Origin: Candidatus Gottesmanbacteria bacterium
GTDB lineage: Bacteria; Patescibacteriota; Microgenomatia; 2-02-FULL-39-11
Direction of reading: 5' to 3'
Assembly (NCBI GenBank): GCA_016186795.1
Contig: JACPKY010000002.1
Coordinates: 861,892 to 925,891, forward strand
DNA: 64,000 nt
Numbering within the stretch: the first letter of the stretch is position 1; each line of letters starts with the position of its first letter. The notes beneath the pieces are model-generated. The model was not told the origin of the DNA, did no database searches, and saw nothing but the letters and a program-made list of their open reading frames with translations. The position numbers and the translations under genes were made by a program. Shown here in pieces: positions 9,839 to 25,311 of this stretch.

Positions 9839-11497
9839 TTAATAAATCTCTGTATCCGGATGAAATGCCGCCCAAGCAAACCAGAATAGACGAATAGGAA
9901 TAATCTCCTCTCCTGTTGCTGTGTTGGTCACTGCAATTTCGCCATTTGTTTGTTTTTCCAGCGTGACTGGAGTACCTCTAATCGTGTCAGAGATCCTGTG
10001 ATTTTTTTCAAAAACATCTTCAGGATAAGCCTTGGATGCGTCTCCAAGCTCAACTCCGTAAACCACTGACTTTATATGTAAACTTCTGTTTAAATCTTTG
10101 ACGCCGAAAAGGAGCTTTTCATCCTCTTCATACGCACCATAGGGATACTGGTCGTAATTTCTGGAAAAGCCGGTGTTTCGGGAGAGTACTTGAGTATCAG
10201 GGTATTCTTCCTTCCACTGGCTCCAATCAACGGTAATGATAGGAACTTTGACTAGTTTCTCATTACGCCGTGCCGCAGGTCCCACAATTGCTTCTCCTGT
10301 AATTTGTTGCCAAAGATTTCCTTCATACCGGTCATACATCACTAAATCACTATTATGCAGTTTTCCTGACACACCAAACTCCGTAATGATACCGTCTACT
10401 TTTCGTTCAAAAGCAAGAGCTGACCCGCATAGAGGACAGAAAGTAATCGCTACTGGATTACCATTTATATTGTCATTTACAATTTCGTGCCAATTTAAGA
10501 TTTTTTGAGGATAGGCTCTGATGATTGATTGAAAATTTAAGGCAAAAACCCGATCATCCGGCGCAAGCCACGTATCAGCATCCTGAGCAGTTTCAAATTT
10601 GGGATTGTTTATTGAAGGAATGCAGTCTTTGCCGAAACAACCCTGCAGTAAATCTTCTTTTGCTACTTTGGCTCCGGAAAAATCATCCTGTAAAATGACA
10701 TCTTTGACAACTGTTTGCCCGGGACTTGCTTTTTGCATACTGTTTTTTCCTCTCAATTGCGAAAGCTGTGAGTCGACATTGACAATTTTTTCGAATGTTG
10801 TGGCAATTTGAGTCCAAGACTGCGGCAGATTTGAAAGTGTCCATGCTTGCAAGCTTCGGTCAGCTCCTGTCCAGATAAACAGAGCGGTAGCCATAATCAC
10901 CAGTCCGAAGACTTGACGGATTTTCAGGTTTTCTTTTTTGAAAAAGGTCAATCTCTGCGAAACAGAACTTCCCCCTTTGGCAATAAAATAGAGGGGTACA
11001 CCTGTTCCTAAAGCATAAGCCAGGGTAATAAATACAGTTGATAGTGAAAAGGAACTCACAGCAGCCAACGTTGCCACTGCCGCTACAACCGGTCCAATAC
11101 ACGGAGTCCAGACGATTCCGAGACTTGCTCCGGTAATAACTCCTCCTGCAAATCCATTATTTTTGCCTTGGGAGGGTTGAAAATGCCAGTGTGTTTCTAT
11201 AAAATACTGTATTTTTTCCCAAACTGCCGGGAATACCAGGCTTGCGCCAAATATGATAAGAAGGGCAACAGCAAGAAGTCTCACTGCATCAGCAGACATA
11301 CCCAATACCCGAACAAGAGTAGCAAGCAAAAGTGAGGCTATCGTAAAACTAAGAACCAGTCCTGCGATAAGCCCTTTGATTCTTTTGCCGTTTCCATCGA
11401 TACCGCTTGCTAAAACTATAGGCAAAATAGGCAAAACACAGGGTGAAAAGACGGTCAAAACACCTGATATGAAAGCAATGGGAATAAGCAGTAACAT
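9839..11497 (-). CDS. Fusion protein: CcdA/DsbD-type transmembrane thiol-disulfide transporter domain + C-terminal DUF3179 domain
   Basis: N-terminal 6-TM region with conserved Cys in TM1 (FSPCVLPILP) and TM4 (WTPCIGPV); C-terminal 300 aa with RAYP...HEIVNDNINGNPVAITFCPLCGS...GVSGKLHNSDLVMYDR pattern of DUF3179. Confidence 0.6.
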   Translation of the reverse strand: MLLLIPIAFISGVLTVFSPCVLPILPIVLASGIDGNGKRIKGLIAGLVLSFTIASLLLATLVRVLGMSADAVRLLAVALLIIFGASLVFPAVWEKIQYFIETHWHFQPSQGKNNGFAGGVITGASLGIVWTPCIGPVVAAVATLAAVSSFSLSTVFITLAYALGTGVPLYFIAKGGSSVSQRLTFFKKENLKIRQVFGLVIMATALFIWTGADRSLQAWTLSNLPQSWTQIATTFEKIVNVDSQLSQLRGKNSMQKASPGQTVVKDVILQDDFSGAKVAKEDLLQGCFGKDCIPSINNPKFETAQDADTWLAPDDRVFALNFQSIIRAYPQKILNWHEIVNDNINGNPVAITFCPLCGSALAFERKVDGIITEFGVSGKLHNSDLVMYDRYEGNLWQQITGEAIVGPAARRNEKLVKVPIITVDWSQWKEEYPDTQVLSRNTGFSRNYDQYPYGAYEEDEKLLFGVKDLNRSLHIKSVVYGVELGDASKAYPEDVFEKNHRISDTIRGTPVTLEKQTNGEIAVTNTATGEEIIPIRLFWFAWAAFHPDTEIY

Positions 11498-11500
11498 ATA

Positions 11501-11947
11501 TTATGTTGCCTCCACTTCCTGAAAAAGCAAATCAAGATTACCTCCGATCCACCTTTTTATCTCATTTCCCTTTTTATCCAAAACAATCAGAGTATGTTGC
11601 TGAGTTACTCTATAATTCGACTTCATTTCGCTATCATTGTCATAGTCAACTTTCAAAATAGTCAAATCTGCCGGGATTTCTCCAATACGCTGGCGTATCT
11701 CTTTGTCCAGCTCCGAACAGGTTTGGCACCACGTTGTTGCTGCAAAGAATAAAACAGTTTTTCCGAATTTTTGGGAATGCACTTTGTTTGTGTCTGAATA
11801 ATCCAAATAAGCTATCCTATTTATCAGTTGTTGTCGATCAGACCAAGTCAGGCTGGGATCCGCATTTTTAAGTGCGTCTTTAAGGAAAATAAAGCCAGCA
11901 GATATACCAAGTACTGATAAAATAATAAATATATTGAACGGTTTCAT
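11501..11947 (-). CDS. Membrane-anchored thioredoxin-like protein (WCxxC)
   Basis: 148 aa; N-terminal TM; TWCQTC active site. Confidence 0.7.
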   Translation of the reverse strand: MKPFNIFIILSVLGISAGFIFLKDALKNADPSLTWSDRQQLINRIAYLDYSDTNKVHSQKFGKTVLFFAATTWCQTCSELDKEIRQRIGEIPADLTILKVDYDNDSEMKSNYRVTQQHTLIVLDKKGNEIKRWIGGNLDLLFQEVEAT

Positions 11948-12020
11948 AAATATTATCCGATGCTTACCTCATATTAGGAGCACGAGTTTACTATACCTTG
12001 CTCCTAATAATAGACGAGCA

Positions 12021-12497
12021 TCACTTTAGATTGGCAAGGAGTGTCTTTATACCCTCGCCACCACTATTCCATCTGGTTATTTCTTTTCCATCACTATCAA
12101 CTTGAACAAACGTATCCTGCATAGTGATGGCATACTTTTGTTTTAAGTCTTTTGCAGTATCGTAATCTACCTTAAGTATTGTTGCATCGCTTGGGACTTT
12201 CTCAAAGTTGGCTTGAAAATCTTTATCGGCTTGCTGGCAGGACGGACACCATTTGAGAGCAGCAAAAAAAAGAACTGCTCGACCGTTATTTGCCGTTGCT
12301 TTTGCCAGATTATCAGATGAGTAATCTAGATACCGTGATAAAATATTAGTCGCTTTTGAATCCTTTGTATCGACATTTGTGATACTAACTTCAGATGGTT
12401 GTTGTGAGGTGGATGCAGATTGATTTTTGATATAGAAAAATCCTCCTCCCACAACTAGTACTATGAAAGCACCCAAAATGACGTGTTGAGACTTCAT
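12021..12497 (-). CDS. Membrane-anchored thioredoxin-like protein (paralog of 11501..11947)
   Basis: ORF 12021..12578; preferred start MKSQHV at 12497 preceded by AGGAGGTGAT SD; KWCPSC active site; shared C-terminal ILKVDYD block with neighbour. Confidence 0.7.
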   Translation of the reverse strand: MKSQHVILGAFIVLVVGGGFFYIKNQSASTSQQPSEVSITNVDTKDSKATNILSRYLDYSSDNLAKATANNGRAVLFFAALKWCPSCQQADKDFQANFEKVPSDATILKVDYDTAKDLKQKYAITMQDTFVQVDSDGKEITRWNSGGEGIKTLLANLK

Positions 12498-12611
12498 ATG
12501 ATCACCTCCTTTCAAAGAAGATAAATCAAGACAATCGTTACAAACCCGGATCCCTTTCATAACGCGATAATAGATCAATTAAGAATGTAATTCTGTCGTG
12601 AAGGTGACAAA

Positions 12612-13274: not shown

Positions 13275-13372
13275 TGGACAATTGTATCATCCAGCTATTA
13301 GTGAAGTTAAGGGTTCTTAAAGTGGTAAAAAGACTTAACAGTCGTGCATTGTTTTTCAACTATAGTATATTT

Positions 13373-13461
13373 GCGGAAGGGGAGGGATTCGAACCCTCGA
13401 GGACGTTTCCGCCCTACTGACTTTCCAGGTCAGCGCCATAAACCAGCTAGGCGACCCTTCC
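13373..13461 (-). tRNA. tRNA-Ser (anticodon GGA), type II
   Basis: Minus read GGAAGGG..anticodon stem CTGAC-CTGGAAA-GTCAG, long variable arm, T-arm GAGGG-TTCGAAT-CCCTC, acceptor CCCTTCC+G. Confidence 0.75.
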
Positions 13462-13462
13462 A

Positions 13463-14053
13463 TCACTCGTTTTTATATTTTCTATGAATTTTCTCCCGCT
13501 CCCTTTTCCACCAATCTTGACTTGAAGTCGTCATTATATCACGATAGAACTTCTTTGAGCTGGCAAGACGCAGTCTTTCACTATTCCCATCCAACCACTC
13601 CTTTGCATGTGTATTTCCTTTTTCCACCAGTGTCTTAAGATACAAACAAAGAGCCAAAACGTCAGCATCGTGGACGACCTTTGATTCAATACTTCCCTTT
13701 TTTTCAAAATCTTTCAAAAGGGTCACTATTGTCTGACGAAACGAAATATTTCCTACTGCATCGGTAAGAGCTTTTTTTGAGTCTGCATGAATATAGAGAT
13801 CTGAAAGTTTATATACATCTCCAATCCTTGTTTCTGAAAAATCATGGAAAAGAGCCAAAAGGAGTACCTTTTCTCTATTAGCACGCTCTTTATCAGCAAG
13901 GACAAGACTTATCATACAGACCATAAATGTATGATCTGCAAGCGATTCTTTCCCGTCTCCGAGAATTTGCCAGCCTGTTCGTTGAAGACGCGTAAGTGAT
14001 AGGGCTTCGAAAAGAAAATTGACATTTTCCTTTATTGACTGTGATTTCTTCAT
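13463..14053 (-). CDS. HD-domain hydrolase, YfbR-like 5'-deoxynucleotidase family
   Basis: 196 aa; H..HD motif (LALFHDFSETRIGD) and upstream His (LADHTFMV) matching YfbR pattern. Confidence 0.65.
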   Translation of the reverse strand: MKKSQSIKENVNFLFEALSLTRLQRTGWQILGDGKESLADHTFMVCMISLVLADKERANREKVLLLALFHDFSETRIGDVYKLSDLYIHADSKKALTDAVGNISFRQTIVTLLKDFEKKGSIESKVVHDADVLALCLYLKTLVEKGNTHAKEWLDGNSERLRLASSKKFYRDIMTTSSQDWWKREREKIHRKYKNE

Positions 14054-14139
14054 AATAAGGTTCTCGAGAGGTATTCCCGCCTTTGGCGGGGAAGCGATTA
14101 AGCGACCTGTAAATTTTCCTCTGAGAAAAATTTATGACT

Positions 14140-14216
14140 GCGGGACGTAAAAAAATTCTGAAGGAATTTTAACGTCCCAGCAACGTTGAAATCGCAAAGC
14201 GATTTCTTACGTTGCG
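14140..14216. repeat. tRNA-trailing hairpin element copy A (gcgggacgtaa...aacgtcccagcaacgttgaaat...atttcttacgttgcg)
   Basis: About 80% identical to 19331..19408; nested inverted repeats gggacgt/acgtccc and gcaacgt/acgttgc; abuts 3' end of tRNA-Arg(CCG). Confidence 0.6.
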
Positions 14217-14288
14217 CGCCCGAGAGGACTTGAACCTCCAACCGCAAGATCCGGAATCTTGTGCTCTATCCAGTTAAGCTACGGGCGC
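14215..14288 (-). tRNA. tRNA-Arg (anticodon CCG)
   Basis: Minus read GCGCCCGTAGCTTAACGGATAGAGCA-CAAGA-TTCCGGA-TCTTG..T-arm GGAGG-TTCAAGT-CCTCT, acceptor CGGGCGC+G. Confidence 0.75.
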
Positions 14289-14716
14289 AAACTGTTAAAT
14301 ATTTTCAGCGCTTCCTTAAAGGCATTTTTGTCTGATTTATACGATAACCTCTTCTCTACCTCCTCTGTAGGTATCCACGACACAGCTGACATCTCATGAT
14401 CATGATCTTTGATATCTCCCGAAACATATTCCATCAGAAAATAATAAACAGTCTTAAATCTTTTATCTCCTTTCCAGACATACCAATAGGTAGCTGGATT
14501 CCCCAATTTGATGATAATTTGCCCTTCAACCCCAGTTTCCTCTTTCACTTCCCGCACTGCTGTCTCCTCACTTTTTTCTCCCTTAATATTGTCGCCTATT
14601 AAACCTTTGGGAAAGACCCAACCTTTGTGCTGAGAATGCTGACAGACGAGCCAAAAAACGTTTTTTGTTTTCTGTTTTTTAAAAACAATTCCACCTGCTG
14701 AAAATTCTCTGGTCAT
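14279..14716 (-). CDS. NUDIX hydrolase
   Basis: 145 aa; Nudix box GWVFPKGLIGDNIKGEKSEETAVREVKEETGVEG (GX5EX7REUXEEXGU). Confidence 0.8.
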   Translation of the reverse strand: MTREFSAGGIVFKKQKTKNVFWLVCQHSQHKGWVFPKGLIGDNIKGEKSEETAVREVKEETGVEGQIIIKLGNPATYWYVWKGDKRFKTVYYFLMEYVSGDIKDHDHEMSAVSWIPTEEVEKRLSYKSDKNAFKEALKIFNSLRP

Positions 14717-14719
14717 ACT

Positions 14720-15763
14720 TTAATGTATGTTCACAATTTCTTTTACATCTTTAATGAATTCTGAAATATCCAGAAAAAAATTTGGATACGCGCGTCTCAA
14801 TATAGCTAGTGGCCCGGCAGATACTAAAACTGGTTCAATTTTTTTACCTTTCACTGCTTCAGCTTCTACATCGCCATAATCTTGGATTGCTTTTTCAAGC
14901 TTCTCTCGATTATATGGTATGATTTGAACCGTTTTCTCAAAGGAATTCAGTATAATTAGATGGTATGACCACCCTTCGCCTTTTTTATTAATTTCTTTTA
15001 CGGCAGTATAGAAACCACCCATTTTTTCCAAAGCACCAATTTTTTTTTCTATTTGAGTTACCAATTGGAAAATTTCATCTTTCTTTTTGCCCTGATGACG
15101 TGGTAAAACATTAGTTTTTTCAATACTTGCAAATGCAGAAGAAACAGTAGCAAAAAAATCCAACCATTCTTTATCTCCCTGGCGCGACTTTAATGCTTGC
15201 CCAAGGAAAGTACCCATTGTTTCAACAGCTGTTGCCCATGTATGTTGTAATTTAGTCCTTACTTGTAGTTCTATCCTTAACCCGTTGTACTCGGGTGCAT
15301 TACGATTGCTATATTTGTACATTAGATGGATACTTCTATACCCATCTATATCTCTTGGTTCTTTAATATAGTCCTTTTGGTTATATAATTCATGTGGAAG
15401 GCGCTTATTATTTTTATAATCCGTGACTAGTTTATAAACATCATCTATTGTTCCTAATACTGCACGGACACCACCTATATCTTGCATCGTTGTTAGTTGC
15501 ATACTAGGTTCTCGCCCCAATTTATCAATTATAGTTGGCATACGTTTGAGTCGTTGCGCAACGATTGGATCATTAGGATACGAACGAACTTTTGTTCTGA
15601 GTGTGGCCTGAAATGTATTAATTGGATAAGAATGACATGCACGCCATTTTTCAGCTATTTTCAGAGCGTTCGCAAATTCGGAAAAATTGGGACCTTTTCG
15701 AAGAACTAGTCCAGCTTTATTGATTTGTGCCTTTGAAATATCAGGTACTTGTGCAAAAGCCAT
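14720..15763 (-). CDS. RelA/SpoT-domain small alarmone synthetase-like nucleotidyl(pyrophospho)transferase with ~150-aa C-terminal extension
   Basis: 347 aa; synthetase blocks MQDIGGVRAV, KDYIKEPRDIDGYRSIHLMY, ELQVRTKLQHTWATAVE align with RelQ/RelP MQDIAGLRI, RDYIAEHKESGYRSYHLVV, EIQIRTLAMNFWATIEH; no hydrolase (HD) domain. Confidence 0.7.
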   Translation of the reverse strand: MAFAQVPDISKAQINKAGLVLRKGPNFSEFANALKIAEKWRACHSYPINTFQATLRTKVRSYPNDPIVAQRLKRMPTIIDKLGREPSMQLTTMQDIGGVRAVLGTIDDVYKLVTDYKNNKRLPHELYNQKDYIKEPRDIDGYRSIHLMYKYSNRNAPEYNGLRIELQVRTKLQHTWATAVETMGTFLGQALKSRQGDKEWLDFFATVSSAFASIEKTNVLPRHQGKKKDEIFQLVTQIEKKIGALEKMGGFYTAVKEINKKGEGWSYHLIILNSFEKTVQIIPYNREKLEKAIQDYGDVEAEAVKGKKIEPVLVSAGPLAILRRAYPNFFLDISEFIKDVKEIVNIH

Positions 15764-15811
15764 ATTAAAGTTTCTATGAAAAAATAAAACACATTAAATA
15801 TTGTTTAAGTG

Positions 15812-15899
15812 CGGAGGGGGCGAGATTCGAACTCGCGTGAGTCTTGCGACTCCCAAGGTTTTCGAGACCTGGCTGATCAACCTCTCCAAGCACCCCTCC
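15812..15899 (-). tRNA. tRNA-Ser (anticodon CGA), type II
   Basis: Minus read GGAGGGG..anticodon stem AGGT-CTCGAAA-ACCT, long variable arm, T-arm GCGAG-TTCGAAT-CTCGC, acceptor CCCCTCC+G. Confidence 0.7.
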
Positions 15900-15905
15900 A
15901 ATTTG

Positions 15906-15977
15906 CGCGCCCACCCAGAATCGAACTGGGATCAGTTGCTCCGCAAGCAACTACTCTATCCGTTAAGCTATGGGCGC
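15906..15977 (-). tRNA. tRNA-Arg (anticodon GCG)
   Basis: Minus read GCGCCCA-TAGCTTAACGGATAGAGTA-GTTGC-TTGCGGA-GCAAC..T-arm CCCAG-TTCGATT-CTGGG, acceptor TGGGCGC+G. Confidence 0.75.
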
Positions 15978-16042
15978 AACGGAATAAATGTCGTAGCTTC
16001 GTATTATAGTATGGAAAATGGGATTTCTCCACTTGGCAGACA

Positions 16043-16576
16043 TTACACTGTTGTCTCAAGAGGGAATTTTTTCGAAAGCCAGTGGGAAAACGAATCTGTC
16101 CAGCTTTTGGGGGGCTTTTCCATATAGAGAAGGTATTTCCCAATCACATCTTTTATTTTCTGTTCGGATACATCACCTAGTACAGCTCTCACTTGTGCAG
16201 GGAAAGCTAACCGAGTCTGGATGACAAGCATCTTCGATCCCCATTTTTCCTCAAACCAGAAAGCATAACATTGACCCCAGTGGATAAGTTTCTCTGCTTG
16301 CTCAAATCCAAGAGGAGTCACCTTATGACTGACCTCAATCGGTTCAACCGTTGATGTAACATAGACAACAAACGCAATCGAGAGAATAACTCCGATAAGC
16401 ATAAACTCATGGAGGAAAAAGACAATAACAACAAGAAGGAATGTAATTGCGGCAACCGTTTGATAAAATACTTTGTTCCTCTTTTTAAACGGATGTGATG
16501 GACTTTTCCAGGAAAGTAGAATCTCGTTAAGATTCTCCGTAGGGATAGGAGATGAAGATTTTGTAGGTGTGGCCAT
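16043..16576 (-). CDS. Hypothetical membrane protein (2 TM)
   Basis: 177 aa ORF with two adjacent hydrophobic helices; no motif recognised. Confidence 0.45.
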   Translation of the reverse strand: MATPTKSSSPIPTENLNEILLSWKSPSHPFKKRNKVFYQTVAAITFLLVVIVFFLHEFMLIGVILSIAFVVYVTSTVEPIEVSHKVTPLGFEQAEKLIHWGQCYAFWFEEKWGSKMLVIQTRLAFPAQVRAVLGDVSEQKIKDVIGKYLLYMEKPPKSWTDSFSHWLSKKFPLETTV

Positions 16577-16733
16577 AGGCAGCTGATACTTCCATTATAT
16601 GAAACAATGAAACGAAAATAAAGAACCGGACTTCTCAAAAAACTCCCTCGAGATTCAACCTTATATTATCACCATGATACAGCCACGTATGCAAGACACC
16701 AAGAAATAAATTCTGTGATGTATACTAAGAAAC

Positions 16734-19330: not shown

Positions 19331-19408
19331 GCGGGACGTAAGAAATTTATGAAATAAATTTCAACGTCCCAGCAACGTTGAAATTGCTATGCAATTTCTT
19401 ACGTTGCG
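19331..19408. repeat. tRNA-trailing hairpin element copy B
   Basis: Paralog of 14140..14216; abuts 3' end of Ser-type tRNA at 19407. Confidence 0.6.
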
Positions 19409-19493
19409 GAGAGGGTGGGATTTGAACCCACGGCCCGGTTTCCCGGACGGCGGTTTAGTAAACCGCTGCACTAGGCCACTATGCGACCTCTCC
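19407..19493 (-). tRNA. Type II (Ser-like) tRNA with apparent anticodon ACU (A34), divergent paralog of tRNA-Ser(GCU) at 24107..24197
   Basis: Minus read GGAGAGGTCGCATAGTGGCCTAGTGC-A-GCGGT-TTACTAA-ACCGC-long variable arm-GTGGGTTCAAATCCCAC-CCTCTCC-G; acceptor, D and T arms identical to the GCU tRNA, anticodon stem-loop differs. Confidence 0.55.
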
Positions 19494-19521: not shown

Positions 19522-21225
19522 CTATTCCAGTACTTTGTACACTTCTACTTCGCTATTTTTAAAAATACTTTTGAGGTATGGATTATTACTGCCGGTAAAA
19601 CCGAGATTTCGTTCTTCCCATCCCACGTATATATAGGAAATGTTATTTTTTGTCAGATACTCATGAGCTTTTTCAAAGGAGAGGTTGTTGGAGAAAAATT
19701 GATGTTTTTGGATATCTCCCTTATCAATAAAGTCTAACTTATTTGCGTTGCCGGATAACGCAGGAATATGAAACGATGCCTCCTTTCCGGCAAGGACAGT
19801 TGTTGCAAATGGCGTATTCCGCTCTAAAAATGCATATGCATTATACTGTTGTTTAGTCGGAAAGTAGAGCGATTGGAAATAGGATAGATTTGAATACGTG
19901 TATAAATTCTGGCCGTATGAAACATAGAGTGTAGGAAGTGTTACGAGGAAAGAAATACCGGTAATGATTCCTACCCAAATGTTTTGAGAGATACGAACAA
20001 AGAGTATCCGAGAAAGAATCTCTAGATGCTTCCCAGAGAAACGAATGCTCTCAACCGCCAAGACTCCCATCGGTATGTAATATAACCCTTGAAGAAACCG
20101 GTACTGTTCAATCCCTAACAAATTACCTCGAAGAAATAAGCCACTTTGAGCAATTACCCACGCAATACACACGATGTACCATTTTCGTTGGACGTCTGAA
20201 TGGATAACCTTCCAGAGACAGATAAAAATTCCAAAGAATGAGAAAAGCGCCAACGGGCCAAGAGCAAGAAAAAGATCAGAAAATGTAATAAGACTATTCC
20301 CGATGAAAAACTTAAAAACGTTCGATATCTCTCCCCAGGGGTATGCTGTAAGGAGTTTTTCATAGTACAAAAGAAGAGGAAGGTTACAAAGAAATAGAAT
20401 AAGAGTCAGAAAAACATCTTTTACAAAATCCATATGTGAAACGGCATAGACAAGTGAACGAAATGAGAATCTTTTCTGCTTAACAGTTTTATGAAGAACC
20501 ATAACTACAGGAGTAAGGAAAAGATAGAGAGAAAGCGTTGCGTAAAAAATGAGGCTGTTGACGGGATTGGCATAAATAAAAACAGACGTAAGGAAAACCA
20601 AATATATTATTTTTTTCATAAATGGCCCTCGAAAGGAAACAAATACCCATACGGCTGGAATGAAAAAGACGAAACTAAAAAGATAATGCGGTAACCCTGT
20701 CGCCCGGGTGAAGATATTGAGTTGTTGGATCCAACTTAAGTAGCGCGAAAAAGATGGACTATCCATCTGGTATGTCGTCGGAAAACCGGAAATCCAGAAA
20801 ACAAAAAGAAGGCCAAGAAATGTCCAAATCTTGCTTTTGAACACCGACTGGTAAAAAAACATCAGAAGAAAAGAAAAAAGTAACCCAAGAACAAACCGGT
20901 CAATATGGTAAATGACAATAGAATTTAATCCTCCAAGAAATCCTAAGATGTATCCAGAGATTGTATATATCCCATGAATCCACGCTGTATATGAGGTAAT
21001 CGAGTTCATCAAAAAGCGTTCATCAAGATGTCCACGCACACCATTTTCAACAAATGAGAGATAGACGAAATAGTCAGAATCCCACCAGTGGATTCCAGAA
21101 AAGATATGGTCGGGAGGAGTCTTAACAAGAAGTATTATCCACGGAGAAAAAGAAAAGAGAAATGTGGCAAGAACAAACAACGGAAGAGCTAAAGTTCTTA
21201 TGAAAATATTGAACTCATTTTTCAT
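19522..21225 (-). CDS. Polytopic membrane protein, GT-C-like (ArnT/PMT-type) putative glycosyltransferase with C-terminal soluble domain
   Basis: 567 aa, more than 10 TM then about 110-aa soluble tail; shares IPALS C-terminal block with 22102..24090. Confidence 0.4.
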   Translation of the reverse strand: MKNEFNIFIRTLALPLFVLATFLFSFSPWIILLVKTPPDHIFSGIHWWDSDYFVYLSFVENGVRGHLDERFLMNSITSYTAWIHGIYTISGYILGFLGGLNSIVIYHIDRFVLGLLFSFLLMFFYQSVFKSKIWTFLGLLFVFWISGFPTTYQMDSPSFSRYLSWIQQLNIFTRATGLPHYLFSFVFFIPAVWVFVSFRGPFMKKIIYLVFLTSVFIYANPVNSLIFYATLSLYLFLTPVVMVLHKTVKQKRFSFRSLVYAVSHMDFVKDVFLTLILFLCNLPLLLYYEKLLTAYPWGEISNVFKFFIGNSLITFSDLFLALGPLALFSFFGIFICLWKVIHSDVQRKWYIVCIAWVIAQSGLFLRGNLLGIEQYRFLQGLYYIPMGVLAVESIRFSGKHLEILSRILFVRISQNIWVGIITGISFLVTLPTLYVSYGQNLYTYSNLSYFQSLYFPTKQQYNAYAFLERNTPFATTVLAGKEASFHIPALSGNANKLDFIDKGDIQKHQFFSNNLSFEKAHEYLTKNNISYIYVGWEERNLGFTGSNNPYLKSIFKNSEVEVYKVLE

Positions 21226-21287: not shown

Positions 21288-22070
21288 ATGATTTATCCAC
21301 TGTATGTTCTCCTTCTCGGGATGCTTGCCGGTCTACACGCAGCTTGTTACGGCGCATATAAAGATAGCCCATACGAACGCTTTAAATTGAATCGATTCGT
21401 CCGGGAAATAAGTATTGGAGCAATTTCCGCTCTTTTTATTTTCTTCAGTACAGAAACCAGAAATGTACACCCGGCAATTCTTTTTCTTTCATTTGTCGCC
21501 TGTTCACGGATTTTTACAGAATCATACAAATTATTTATTCGTGAAGAATCCCAAAAAAAATATAAAATCCCCTCCATGCTCCATATCTTCAAAAACGTCC
21601 TAACATCCCGACTCCAAAGAATTCTTATTGGTGTTGTTGCGTATGTTATTTTTGCAGGATTTTTCGTGCTTGCATTCAAGATCTCCAGTATTTTCTCCAT
21701 CCCTATAAGCGGCGTACTGATTGGACTCATTACTGGATTAATAACAGGTTTTGGAGGTGCATATAAAGATGGCTTTTTCGAGGGTTTTCAAATTCGAAAG
21801 TTCTTCAGAAGTCCGATTATCGGAGCTCTTTCAGGATATCTCCTATCGTATTTAACAGCAGAACCACTTTTCCTTCTTTTATCATCATGGGGGTTGGAAC
21901 GGATGATCGTAGAATTCTATAAAGGGTTTGTAAAAGCAAAATATGTACCAGGGAAATTTAATTTCATAAAAGCTCGGTACCCAGAGTATTTCCTCAAGCG
22001 AAAACGCATCATACCTGCTTATGTAGCAACATGGTTCACCCTCGTATTTCTCCTTCTTTATAGAATATAA
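21288..22070 (+). CDS. Hypothetical membrane protein (6-7 TM)
   Basis: 260 aa hydrophobic ORF. Confidence 0.45.
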   Translation: MIYPLYVLLLGMLAGLHAACYGAYKDSPYERFKLNRFVREISIGAISALFIFFSTETRNVHPAILFLSFVACSRIFTESYKLFIREESQKKYKIPSMLHIFKNVLTSRLQRILIGVVAYVIFAGFFVLAFKISSIFSIPISGVLIGLITGLITGFGGAYKDGFFEGFQIRKFFRSPIIGALSGYLLSYLTAEPLFLLLSSWGLERMIVEFYKGFVKAKYVPGKFNFIKARYPEYFLKRKRIIPAYVATWFTLVFLLLYRI

Positions 22071-22101: not shown

Positions 22102-24090
22102 TCAGTCGTTTTCGTTCACGTCTTGCAAAATAATTACCGAATCATTTTCAAAAAGTGTCATAAATCCTTCACGCGCGGCCTTTTCCAAAAAATAGTGATT
22201 GTAGGGTTTATGGAGAAAAATAAGAGGTTTATCCCCAAGCGCTCGTCTGTCTTCAAATGCACCTGTTCGTTCATCGAAATACCGATACAGGGTATTAAGT
22301 TGGAATTGAGGGTCTTTGCCGGTTTGTCTGACATACCCAGGACTTGCGATATAGACATGTCTTTCAGATAACGCTGGAATATAAATCGGATCATGTCCGG
22401 ACCTTTGTGGATCAGTATACTGACGCGGATCGATAAGAATGACTGCATTTTTTGGTGTATTCTCTTTGAGAAAGTTAATTGCCTCCATTTCATTCATTCC
22501 AACAGAATCCACCGTTGACACTAATTTTTCATAGAGATACTTCATATTAGTCGGAATAGCCAGAAGAATACTTACAAAAATAATCGCCGGACCAAGAATA
22601 GAGCGGTTTATCCTCCTTGGGAAATAGTAAAACTTCTCAAGAGAGAAAGTGGTTAAAACTCCCAAAAGAACAAGAGCGTATGGAGTGAACTGGACAATAT
22701 TGTAGGATGTAATGTTGAGGTTAAATAAAAGTGGGATAGAAAAACTTACAAAGATACTCCATGCAATATACCAGATCGTCAGTTTCGACAGTCCAGTTTT
22801 TACTTTCCGGTTGACCAATAATAAAGCAAGTACGGCAACACCTGTTATTCTCACACCTAAGTTTCCTACGAGATAAATAGTAAACTCAATACCCTTCAGC
22901 TTTAAAAGTCCAAGGGTATTACCGATACTCTTGTAGTAGCTTTCGATCTCCCCGAACTTAACAAGATGAAGCCCGTCATTTTTCGTCATCATTTCTGTCA
23001 GAACCCACCCGGGGTAGAAGTTGAGCGTGGCCTTTTGGGGCTCGGTAATATAGAAGAAAATGGGGAGGAAAAGCATCCATATCATGGGTATAATCCATAA
23101 TAATTTCCATTTCCTCATACCGATGCCGAAAGAAAGAATACTGAAAGTCAGTGCAGAAACCATCGTAACGGCGGCAAAAGATTTGAACCCATAGGACGAG
23201 CCTGTAAGAAGAACAAGGAGAAGAACCCATCTCCATTGGATCTTTTTTTGTGCATCAATGACCATTGATAGGATATACGTGCTGAAAAGGAGAAAAGAAA
23301 ATGCAAGTACGGAATACGGATTCACAATTTGACTAAGAGGTTGATCTACAAGAAAGGTGTTTCCTTCCCAGTTAAAATTCCAGCCATACCAAAGTACAAG
23401 GAGGTATGATATGCTCCCGCAGAAAAATCCCATGAATATCGTCAACCCTTGGAAAAAATGACTTTTTGTGAAAAGAGTGCTCACTGCATACAAACTTAGT
23501 CCGAAAAGAAGTGATACTAGGATGGGCATGAAATGAAAATAAAGATCGATGAAATTGATATGGGTTATCCGATGAGCTGTTGCGACAAAAAGAGGATAAA
23601 AATAATGATTGTTTTTCAGGGGAAGACCAACCATGGCAGGGTTTTGTGGTGGAAATCTGTCTGATAACTCAACTGAAAGGGCAATTCCCCACATTGTATC
23701 GTGCATAAAAGGGAAGAAGTATCTATCCTTCCCTTTCATACCGCCTGGAAAAAGGATAATAGTCTGGGAAATAACTGCAAGTAAGAGCACCAAGAGAATG
23801 CCTTTATTCGTAATTCGTACTCGCGTAGGTATCTGCCATTTTCTTAAAACCTGAAAAAAGAGAAAGAAAATACTCACAACAGGTAAAATCCACAGAATCC
23901 AAAACTCAAATCCGAAAAATCGGATAAGAAATGTAACAAGCGTTAACTGAACAATACCGATAATAAGCAAAAGACCAGTACGTATGAGTTTATCTTCAGG
24001 AAGTTGTATCTTTACTAGCTTGAAAAGGAAAATCGATGGAAGGATAACAAAAAGAAGGAGGAAGAGAAGAAAAGTTACAATCATTTTCAA
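22102..24090 (-). CDS. Polytopic membrane protein, GT-C-like putative glycosyltransferase (paralog family of 19522..21225)
   Basis: 662 aa, about 13 TM, C-terminal soluble domain with YIPALSERHVY block. Confidence 0.4.
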   Translation of the reverse strand: MKMIVTFLLFLLLFVILPSIFLFKLVKIQLPEDKLIRTGLLLIIGIVQLTLVTFLIRFFGFEFWILWILPVVSIFFLFFQVLRKWQIPTRVRITNKGILLVLLLAVISQTIILFPGGMKGKDRYFFPFMHDTMWGIALSVELSDRFPPQNPAMVGLPLKNNHYFYPLFVATAHRITHINFIDLYFHFMPILVSLLFGLSLYAVSTLFTKSHFFQGLTIFMGFFCGSISYLLVLWYGWNFNWEGNTFLVDQPLSQIVNPYSVLAFSFLLFSTYILSMVIDAQKKIQWRWVLLLVLLTGSSYGFKSFAAVTMVSALTFSILSFGIGMRKWKLLWIIPMIWMLFLPIFFYITEPQKATLNFYPGWVLTEMMTKNDGLHLVKFGEIESYYKSIGNTLGLLKLKGIEFTIYLVGNLGVRITGVAVLALLLVNRKVKTGLSKLTIWYIAWSIFVSFSIPLLFNLNITSYNIVQFTPYALVLLGVLTTFSLEKFYYFPRRINRSILGPAIIFVSILLAIPTNMKYLYEKLVSTVDSVGMNEMEAINFLKENTPKNAVILIDPRQYTDPQRSGHDPIYIPALSERHVYIASPGYVRQTGKDPQFQLNTLYRYFDERTGAFEDRRALGDKPLIFLHKPYNHYFLEKAAREGFMTLFENDSVIILQDVNEND

Positions 24091-24106: not shown

Positions 24107-24197
24107 TGGCGGAGAGGGTGGGATTTGAACCCACGGTCCCCTTACGAGGACAGCGCATTAGCACTGCGCCGCACTAGACCAACTATGCGACCTCTCC
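24107..24197 (-). tRNA. tRNA-Ser (anticodon GCU), type II, CCA encoded
   Basis: Minus read GGAGAGGTCGCATAGTTGGTCTAGTGC-G-GCGCA-GTGCTAA-TGCGC-long arm-GTGGGTTCAAATCCCAC-CCTCTCC-G-CCA. Confidence 0.75.
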
Positions 24198-24895: not shown

Positions 24896-24916
24896 AAAAT
24901 CCCGAGGGGCGAAGTG

Positions 24917-25311
24917 TGGAGATGTCCGGTATTGAGCCGGAGTCCGAAGTAACAATTCGAAAATGTCTACAAGCGTAGTCAATACTATAAAAGCGTGGTC
25001 TTTATTGACAAAGACGATTCACGACAGTGTTGGTCTAGAATCCTCCGAAATCAACCGACCAGTTGATTTCTGACGTCCTGACTGTGTTTACACCGATACC
25101 TCTCCATCAGGAGAGAGAACTACCGATGCATGCTGAGGCGTAAGATTTACGCGTAGGCATGAGCAAGTTGTCGTCCGCCGGTTAAGGCATCGAGAGCAAC
25201 AAGCTTTTCTGCTGATTCATTAGCAGGTATGTTTGGTAATGTTTTACGGCTTTCTTACCACCGCCGGCTTGCAATTTTCAAAGTGCTCGCTTCGTCGAAC
25301 GAAGCATCCCC
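24917..25311 (-). ncRNA. ssrA: tmRNA (SsrA), one-piece
   Basis: Minus read begins GGGGATGCTTCGTTCGACGAAGCG (cf. GGGGCUGAUUCUGGAUUCGACGGG) and ends ...TCCGG-CTCAATA-CCGGA-CATCTCC-A (T-arm plus acceptor with G3:U wobble typical of Ala identity); immediately downstream of smpB; CCA not encoded. Confidence 0.75.

Follow-up and report, generated by a model that had tools for sequence, protein, structure and literature searches.

We analysed a 64,000-nucleotide stretch of DNA from a Candidatus Gottesmanbacteria bacterium (assembly GCA_016186795.1, contig JACPKY010000002.1, positions 861,892 to 925,891), hereafter called the window, with positions counted from its first letter. The locus of interest holds, on the minus strand, a gene for a protein of 347 amino acids (aa) with a RelA/SpoT-type synthetase domain, which lies beside tRNA-Ser(CGA) and is separated by 3 bp from the start of a Nudix hydrolase gene. 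Further tRNA genes and a gene for an HD hydrolase lie on either side (Table 1). The first-pass annotation of this DNA had described the protein as a small alarmone synthetase (SAS), and had proposed that it forms a toxin-antitoxin (TA) module of the toxic SAS (toxSAS) kind with the Nudix hydrolase, that it resembles the CapRel antiphage systems, or that it takes part in a minimal housekeeping alarmone cycle. The positions of its open reading frames (ORFs) and tRNA genes were all confirmed, including the 3-bp gap; the RelA/SpoT motifs that it quoted are present in the 347-aa protein and a hydrolase domain is absent. As regards function, the protein is in our view probably a fused CapRel-type toxSAS homolog, i.e., toxin and antitoxin in one polypeptide, inserted beside tRNA-Ser(CGA).

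The identity of the protein was established with several types of comparison. Pfam recognises a RelA_SpoT domain at residues 70-178 (E 1.7e-15), the PADLOC model PDC-S33 matches residues 5-344 with 398 bits (E 9.9e-120), and the match to PHROG 4773 has an E value of 4.7e-100. CapRel-SJ46 itself matches PDC-S33 over its full length (290 bits), and PDC-S33 is thus a model of the fused CapRel family. In a phmmer search of the PDB, residues 9-337 align onto residues 15-363 of CapRel (7ztb/9erv, E 1.7e-32), and a profile of 23 homologs compared with CapRel-SJ46 by hhalign gave an alignment of 330 columns with a probability of 99.9 and an E value of 1.5e-35. The window protein is hence homologous to CapRel along its entire length.

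The predicted structure tells the same. AlphaFold2 (AF2) produced a model with a predicted local distance difference test score (pLDDT) of 83.6 and a predicted TM-score (pTM) of 0.79. When this model was searched against the PDB with Foldseek, CapRel (7ztb/9erv) was the sole full-length match, with 356-360 aligned columns, TM-scores of 0.68-0.70 and E values around 1e-20. The matches to RelP, RelQ and long Rel were confined to the N-terminal half, with query TM-scores (TMq) of 0.35-0.44 for RelQ and RelP. The root-mean-square deviation between the AF2 model and the open crystal form of CapRel is 8-9 Å, which could mean a different arrangement of the domains. Past the synthetase domain, the model has helices at residues 198-215, 228-259, 286-304, 319-325 and 334-346 and strands at 265-273, 278-285 and 309-315. 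The C-terminal part of about 150 aa, which the first-pass annotation had left as an unrecognised extension and suggested comparing with CapRel by profile or structure, was matched by both approaches: its whole length can be aligned with the antitoxin/sensor region at the C terminus of CapRel-SJ46. The idea of a CapRel-type system holds more strongly than it had been put, since the fused protein is homologous over its full length and brings a predicted antitoxin domain in cis.

To assess the functional residues, we aligned 75 full-length genomic homologs with the window protein and CapRel-SJ46 (77 sequences in total) and mapped the roles of residues through the alignment to CapRel 7ztb/9erv and the functions given in PMC9712102. 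The ATP-site arginines R79 and R116 of CapRel-SJ46 correspond to R71 and R100 of the window protein, and its G-loop tyrosine Y155 corresponds to Y142. At the docking interface, the counterparts of A77, V338, L339, A341 and A351 are A69, V312, L313, S315 and A325, respectively, while Y352 and Y355 of the YXXY neutralisation motif are matched by Y326 and F329. Ten positions (R71, D95, R100, Y142, E165, Q167, R169, A69, V312 and A325) do not vary among the 77 sequences. Y326 is retained in all sequences except one (76/77), position 313 is either L or M, and at position 329, 40 of the aligned sequences have F, 30 have Y and 6 have L. The catalytic acidic residues, whose loss would have spoken against an active synthetase, are therefore intact (D95 and E165). 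Judging from this alignment, the autoinhibitory interface known from CapRel is retained in the window protein.

The C-terminal domain is also widespread, being found in 1234 representative clusters. Among the best 150 of these, most proteins have ~345-365 aa with the domain at ~195-345, i.e., the same fused architecture. Many short matches occur among these 150 as well; the four that were read as possible stand-alone versions of the domain turned out to be truncated fragments starting inside the toxin domain. Across 76 sequences, the mean identity to the window protein is 0.58 in the N-terminal part and 0.43 in the C-terminal part, and within the close clade the C-terminal half is 65-88 % conserved, depending on the block.

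Table 1. Features of the CapRel-like locus, with positions in the 64,000-nucleotide window.
Feature	Position	Strand	Evidence
Fused CapRel-type toxSAS gene (probable), 347 aa, stop codon included	14720..15763	-	PADLOC, PDB, hhalign and Foldseek matches
N-terminal toxSYNTH (RelA/SpoT synthetase-fold) domain, residues 1-195	15179..15763	-	Pfam RelA_SpoT, residues 70-178
C-terminal linker helices, pseudo-zinc-finger-domain (pseudo-ZFD)-like beta/alpha domain and anchor helix, residues 196-347; predicted cis antitoxin/sensor	14723..15178	-	Aligns to CapRel-SJ46 ~214-370
Y326-P-N-F329, counterpart of the CapRel YXXY neutralisation motif	14777..14788	-	Alignment with CapRel-SJ46
Codon of G-loop Y142	15338-15340	-	
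1094-bp insertion: 47-bp leader (15764-15810), CapRel-like ORF and 3-bp spacer	14717..15810	-	Comparison with empty-site relatives
tRNA-Ser(CGA); its 3' flank is the insertion point	15811..15899	-	ARAGORN
tRNA-Arg(GCG), within the conserved frame	15905..15977	-	ARAGORN, Rfam
Promoter-like site TGGAGA-17-TATAAT, upstream of the tRNA-Arg/tRNA-Ser/CapRel/Nudix string	16003..16031	-	Consensus scan, 10/12 matches
Resident Nudix hydrolase (Ap4A-hydrolase-like), 145 aa; context only	14279..14716	-	Pfam NUDIX
tRNA-Arg(CCG), overlapping the last 10 nt of the Nudix ORF	14214..14288	-	ARAGORN, Rfam
Resident HD_3 / YfbR-HDDC2-like hydrolase, 196 aa; context only	13463..14053	-	Pfam HD_3
tRNA-Ser(GGA), closing the conserved tRNA frame	13373..13461	-	ARAGORN

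The tRNA genes of the locus were confirmed by Rfam, with the exception of tRNA-Ser(CGA), which scores 41.7 bits against the class II tRNA-Sec model, just under the gathering score. A scan of positions 13300-16700 detected no terminator-like site on the minus strand. Together with the promoter-like site upstream of tRNA-Arg(GCG), this suggests that the CapRel-like gene may be co-transcribed with the tRNAs and the Nudix gene.

The history of the locus can be read from related genomes. Five related contigs (L086, L088, L089, L093 and L094) have the orthologous tRNA-Ser(CGA) at the same position and share with the window the frame tRNA-Arg(GCG)-tRNA-Ser(CGA)-[slot]-Nudix-tRNA-Arg(CCG)-...-tRNA-Ser(GGA). 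The content of the slot differs among them. L093 and L094 are empty sites, where the ATG of the Nudix gene starts 1 nt past the 3' end of tRNA-Ser(CGA) (5377-5379 in L093 and 5440-5442 in L094); these two also share with the window the HD_3 gene and the gene upstream of the tRNA pair, which encodes a protein of 177 aa (16043-16576 in the window). The slot spans 578 bp with no called gene in L086 (4424-5000), 2.2 kb with HNH, RibD_C and a ParE/Phd pair in L089 (1575-3780), and 4.8 kb including a Gp49/HTH_3 (HigBA-like) pair in L088 (236-5000). In the window it spans 1094 bp and the CapRel-like ORF is its sole gene. The slot beside tRNA-Ser(CGA) is thus a tRNA-flank integration hotspot, or genomic islet, as the tRNA clustering had led the first-pass annotation to propose: relatives with an empty site exist and others carry different TA cargo. 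The pair of SAS and Nudix genes is accordingly not universal, since these five relatives have the Nudix gene and lack the SAS. The 3-bp spacing between the two genes results from insertion into a locus that already had no intergenic space. As a side observation, the segment past tRNA-Arg(CCG) varies too, with an Inositol_P gene, with or without a glycosyltransferase or FAD oxidase gene, in the place taken elsewhere by HD_3.

The CapRel-like gene looks acquired, given its base composition, its nearest relatives in other phyla and the empty sites. Its G+C content at third codon positions (GC3) is 0.241, the lowest of 28 window genes sampled (the 27 others range from 0.295 to 0.416). The nearest homolog, with 70 % identity, is in a Kerfeldbacteria genome, and the next ones (~60-68 % identity) are in Omnitrophota, Pseudomonadota, Nitrospirota, Chloroflexota, Planctomycetota and one archaeon. 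Phage SJ46 and 111 plasmids carry homologs as well. Compared at the DNA level, the window and the nearest homolog are similar only within the ORF, and neither att-like repeats nor common flanks by which a mobile unit could be delimited were found.

The Nudix protein (Pfam NUDIX, E 1.9e-18) has as closest PDB entry the Ap4A hydrolase 3i7u, matched over its full length (E 6.8e-26), and has orthologs with 60-83 % identity, named in Gottesmanbacteria, Microgenomates and Levybacteria. Its Nudix box is intact (G41x5E47x7R55E56..E59E60xG62). The HD protein (Pfam HD_3, E 7.5e-21) matches 2cqz, AF1432, HDDC2 and YfbR in the PDB; its homologs have 50-70 % identity, and the few with a source name are from Gottesmanbacteria. 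The order Nudix-tRNA-HD_3 also occurs in L093 and L094, both without the SAS. Both hydrolases are therefore prior residents of the locus, outside the CapRel module. The possibility that HD_3 is a small alarmone hydrolase (SAH)-like detoxifier acquired together with the SAS was considered and rejected: the protein is YfbR/HDDC2-like and has the same place in SAS-free relatives. We also noticed that the last 10 nt of the Nudix ORF, stop codon included, overlap the 5' end of tRNA-Arg(CCG), in the window (14279-14288) as well as in L094 (5885-5894) and L088 (5447-5456), and that in the empty-site relatives this ORF is wedged between tRNA genes without any spacer. Processing of the tRNA 5' and 3' ends in a co-transcript could yield a near-leaderless Nudix mRNA and could remove its stop codon.

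We then surveyed 80 genomic loci with a homolog of the CapRel-like gene and assigned Pfam families to 121 proteins that flank it in 65 de-duplicated loci. This census revealed no recurrent partner family. Class II aminoacyl-tRNA synthetases (4) head the list of neighbours, ahead of EF-Tu/EF-G and ThrRS domains (3 each) and of restriction-modification (R-M) methylases, ResIII, Eco57I, PIN and integrases (2 each). A Nudix gene adjoins the homolog in 1 of the 80 loci (L060, Saccharibacteria), and relatives of the window Nudix or HD protein are beside none of the 80. Several arrangements with translation genes recur. Nine Dehalococcoidia species (L072-L084) have the order LysRS-SerRS-[gene]-Pth-LigA; in Saccharibacteria, LysRS is 16 nt upstream of the CapRel-like gene; in L045, a release factor gene (PCRF/RF-1) is 3 nt upstream; ThrRS is downstream in L044, L060 and L077; and in Kerfeld- and Daviesbacteria the homolog is between EF-G and EF-Tu in the str operon. 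Single loci have GlyRS-beta or TGT as neighbour. The Kerfeldbacteria homolog adjoins a gene for an AAA_14/DUF4143 ATPase, and both are wedged between EF-G and EF-Tu (L003/L007, 6562-7824 and 8001-9056); this homolog was also assembled from SRR12113422, one of the runs that yielded the window protein.

Two Saccharibacteria loci stand apart in this survey. An SAH-like HD hydrolase is encoded ~0.6 kb upstream of the CapRel-like gene in L077 (4589-5320) and L060 (4625-5371); it matches SpoT/Rel hydrolase domains with an E value of 3e-9, and also a (p)ppApp hydrolase and MESH1. In L060, the Nudix gene is directly upstream of the CapRel-like gene and overlaps its start. SAH enzymes are known as enzymatic detoxifiers of toxSAS (Kurata et al., bioRxiv 10.1101/2021.04.30.441581), and a real pairing of toxSAS and hydrolase is therefore possible in L060 and L077; it may be a trait of that Saccharibacteria lineage. 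Neither the window nor the remaining loci yielded an SAH.

How does the fused CapRel reading compare with others? One might have expected, as the first-pass annotation did, a two-gene system in which the Nudix protein serves as antitoxin or detoxifier by hydrolysing the product of the toxin, whether alarmone or tRNA 3'-pyrophosphate. The two ORFs are on the same strand 3 bp apart and are probably co-transcribed, the Nudix box is intact, the L060 homolog likewise has a Nudix gene directly upstream, and SAH enzymes provide a precedent for enzymatic detoxification. Yet the Nudix gene is a lineage-conserved resident, with its orthologs in the same tRNA frame in the five relatives without SAS, and its start abuts the tRNA in the empty sites, so that the tight spacing is a result of the insertion. 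The only Nudix gene among the surveyed loci does not resemble that of the window, the best matches of the latter are Ap4A hydrolases, and the 347-aa protein already has a predicted cis antitoxin domain. Ortholog synteny and the survey thus led us to discard the Nudix protein as partner, and we regard such a two-gene system as very unlikely. Even less credible is a housekeeping alarmone synthetase of the RelQ/RelP type, making (p)ppGpp in a minimal stringent cycle that either the Nudix or the HD hydrolase would complete. No catalytic residue is missing from the RelA_SpoT domain, and no other RelA/SpoT homolog (RSH) is encoded in the window, both in line with such a role. RelQ, RelP and YjbM, which are housekeeping (p)ppGpp makers, share the synthetase fold and the catalytic core with the window protein, but the matches are weak (E ~1e-10) and cover the N-terminal half only, whereas CapRel covers the whole protein; these enzymes are without the C-terminal regulatory domain, and the window protein is under the family cut-off, with 54.5 bits against 320 for NCBIfam GTPPhKinYjbM. 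Moreover, relatives lack the gene at the orthologous locus, its GC3 deviates and its closest homologs come from foreign phyla. The HD protein resembles YfbR/HDDC2 and is not an RSH hydrolase, and enzymes of the CapRel subfamily are reported to modify tRNA instead of producing (p)ppGpp (Kurata et al., bioRxiv 10.1101/2021.04.30.441581). The housekeeping cycle put forward in the first-pass annotation is hence disfavoured.

A third reading keeps the CapRel chemistry and changes its purpose: the gene would be a domesticated tRNA pyrophosphokinase acting as an endogenous translation brake or guard, with a cellular or translation-related trigger in place of a phage capsid. The recurrence of small-genome homologs in the translation loci described above, the position of the window gene within a string of tRNA genes and the unusual conservation of the C-terminal domain across phyla all favour it. 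In Dehalococcoidia, however, where synteny is fixed, the gene has a mean identity of 0.67 against 0.76-0.86 for its neighbours and shows no significant correlation with their divergence. Because it diverges faster than its neighbours, and without significant correlation with them, a housekeeping constraint is unsupported there, and this pattern fits an immune gene better. In Gottesmanbacteria the gene is a clear recent insertion missing from relatives, other homologs are beside R-M methylases, ResIII, PIN genes and integrases, and in dense small genomes translation genes are likelier neighbours by chance. We consider domestication unlikely, though less so than the two readings above. At the same low level of confidence, one could generalise it: in ultra-small genomes (phyla of the candidate phyla radiation (CPR) and Dehalococcoidia), this CapRel clade might have been recruited as a tRNA CCA-end pyrophosphokinase, a regulator or guard wired into loci of tRNAs, aminoacyl-tRNA synthetases, elongation factors, release factors and Pth, and the signal sensed by its conserved C-terminal domain would be related to translation or widely shared, in place of a phage capsid specific to one lineage; the copy in Gottesmanbacteria, transcribed together with tRNA-Arg and tRNA-Ser, would then exemplify this. 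Finally, the gene could be a decaying or inactive hitch-hiker without current function, as might be suspected from the lack of a recognisable Shine-Dalgarno sequence in the 47-bp leader and from its isolation from any mobile-element genes. This is highly improbable, as the ORF runs intact over 347 aa with all its catalytic and interface residues conserved, and the identical protein was assembled from several sequencing runs.

Some observations fit the fused CapRel-type toxSAS less well and weigh against it. Identity to CapRel-SJ46 is only ~30 %, with 36 % in the N-terminal and 19 % in the C-terminal part, and the YXXY motif of the window protein has Phe as its second aromatic residue. The C-terminal half is far more conserved across phyla than expected of a sensor engaged in an arms race, with 71 % identity between the window and Kerfeldbacteria proteins; the C-terminal sensor of enterobacterial CapRel is described as variable (PMC9712102), and that of the close clade here is much less so. 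The comparison of the C-terminal domain with the stand-alone antitoxin Phrann gp30 by hhalign was not significant (E 0.21), although this weak alignment is nonetheless on the expected segment of the domain. The insertion has no flanking direct repeats beyond tRNA paralogy and the insert holds no phage, integrase or recombinase gene. Many small-genome homologs, lastly, are in translation-gene loci and not in defence islands.

The fused CapRel-type toxSAS nevertheless remains the reading that we favour, and a mechanism can be proposed by analogy with the characterised CapRel-SJ46, for which autoinhibition, the function of the YXXY motif and activation by a phage protein have been described (Zhang et al. 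2022, PMC9712102). The gene entered the locus within an insertion of 1094 bp that holds a single ORF and lies directly 3' of tRNA-Ser(CGA), in the slot that holds other TA cargo in relatives. Its N-terminal toxSYNTH domain would move pyrophosphate from ATP onto tRNAs at their 3' CCA end, and translation would stop. At rest, the pseudo-ZFD-like C-terminal domain would be folded back, with the turn Y326-P-N-F329 placed between R71 and R100 and blocking the ATP site. A trigger, most likely a phage structural protein, would bind the C-terminal domain and hold it open, leading to abortive infection. That the substrate is tRNA, that the protein inhibits itself, and that a phage triggers it in the service of defence are all points transferred from the characterised family member, and should be read as predictions. 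Membership of PDC-S33, a phage-defence candidate model of PADLOC, and of a PHROG lends indirect support to activation by phage and to abortive infection.

Among known systems, CapRel-SJ46 (Salmonella phage SJ46; PDB 7ZTB, 9ERV) is the closest parallel. The two proteins are of the same length class, have the same order of toxSYNTH, linker helices, pseudo-ZFD-like domain and anchor helix, match the same PADLOC model, and are each encoded by a single ORF without a separate antitoxin. They differ in the motif, which is YPNY in CapRel-SJ46 and YPNF in the window protein, and in their setting, since the CapRel-SJ46 gene is in a P1-like prophage while that of the window is chromosomal, at a tRNA flank, in a CPR host. 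Unlike CapRel-SJ46, the window protein belongs to a clade with high conservation across phyla, which extends to much of the C-terminal half. The bicistronic toxSAS systems (Mycobacterium CapRel/ATcapRel; PhRel/ATphRel, which is Phrann gp29/gp30; Jimmy et al. 2020, PMC7229694) share a homologous toxin domain with the window protein, whose N-terminal part is matched by Phrann gp29 (E 9e-8); gp29 also matches PDC-S33 (E 1e-23). The same tRNA-targeting chemistry would be expected, but the separate antitoxin gene is absent at the window locus. The window protein is a top-scoring full-length member of both PDC-S33 and PHROG 4773, which are computational families without described function; the literature searched contained nothing on PDC-S33, nor on alarmone or toxSAS genes in Patescibacteria. 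The window protein is hence a divergent member of the fused CapRel family, in a clade already captured by these two families, and what distinguishes it is the CPR host, the YPNF motif, the conserved C-terminal half and the bare single-ORF insertion at a tRNA flank.

Other features of the window deserve mention. The serine tRNA genes found (UGA, GGA, CGA, ACU and GCU) and two arginine tRNA genes are on the same strand, scattered over 23 kb (1450-24197) among protein genes, in an arrangement partly conserved in L086 and L093. One of them, a class II tRNA at 19406-19493 (minus strand; 54 bits with the Rfam tRNA model), is called by ARAGORN as tRNA-Ser with anticodon ACU (loop TTACTAA), which is unusual in bacteria; a normal tRNA-Ser(GCU) is at 24107-24197. 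A tmRNA gene at 24914-25311 (minus strand) matches the full Rfam model with 89.9 bits and went unreported by ARAGORN. Three consecutive large ORFs, at 19522-21225 (567 aa), 21288-22070 (260 aa) and 22102-24090 (662 aa), have no Pfam match at the thresholds used, and the same is true of the conserved 177-aa protein encoded upstream of the tRNA pair. The region 9839-12578 (minus strand) encodes a DsbD_TM-DUF3179 fusion and, after it, two thioredoxin-like secreted proteins and a regulator of the Crp family, and looks like an ordinary redox/maturation cluster.

If the window protein is, as is probable, a fused CapRel-type toxSAS, it extends this single-protein type of immunity to a CPR bacterium with a genome of ~1.1 Mb. 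The locus also provides an unusually clean before-and-after case of a putative one-gene defence cassette at the 3' flank of a tRNA gene. It is also a reminder that close packing against a hydrolase gene may be deceptive: what looks like a toxin-Nudix operon arose because the insertion hit a locus without gaps. Finally, the apparent association of the clade with translation loci in small genomes, and with a nearby SAH-type hydrolase in two Saccharibacteria, could point to roles of tRNA pyrophosphorylation beyond phage defence.

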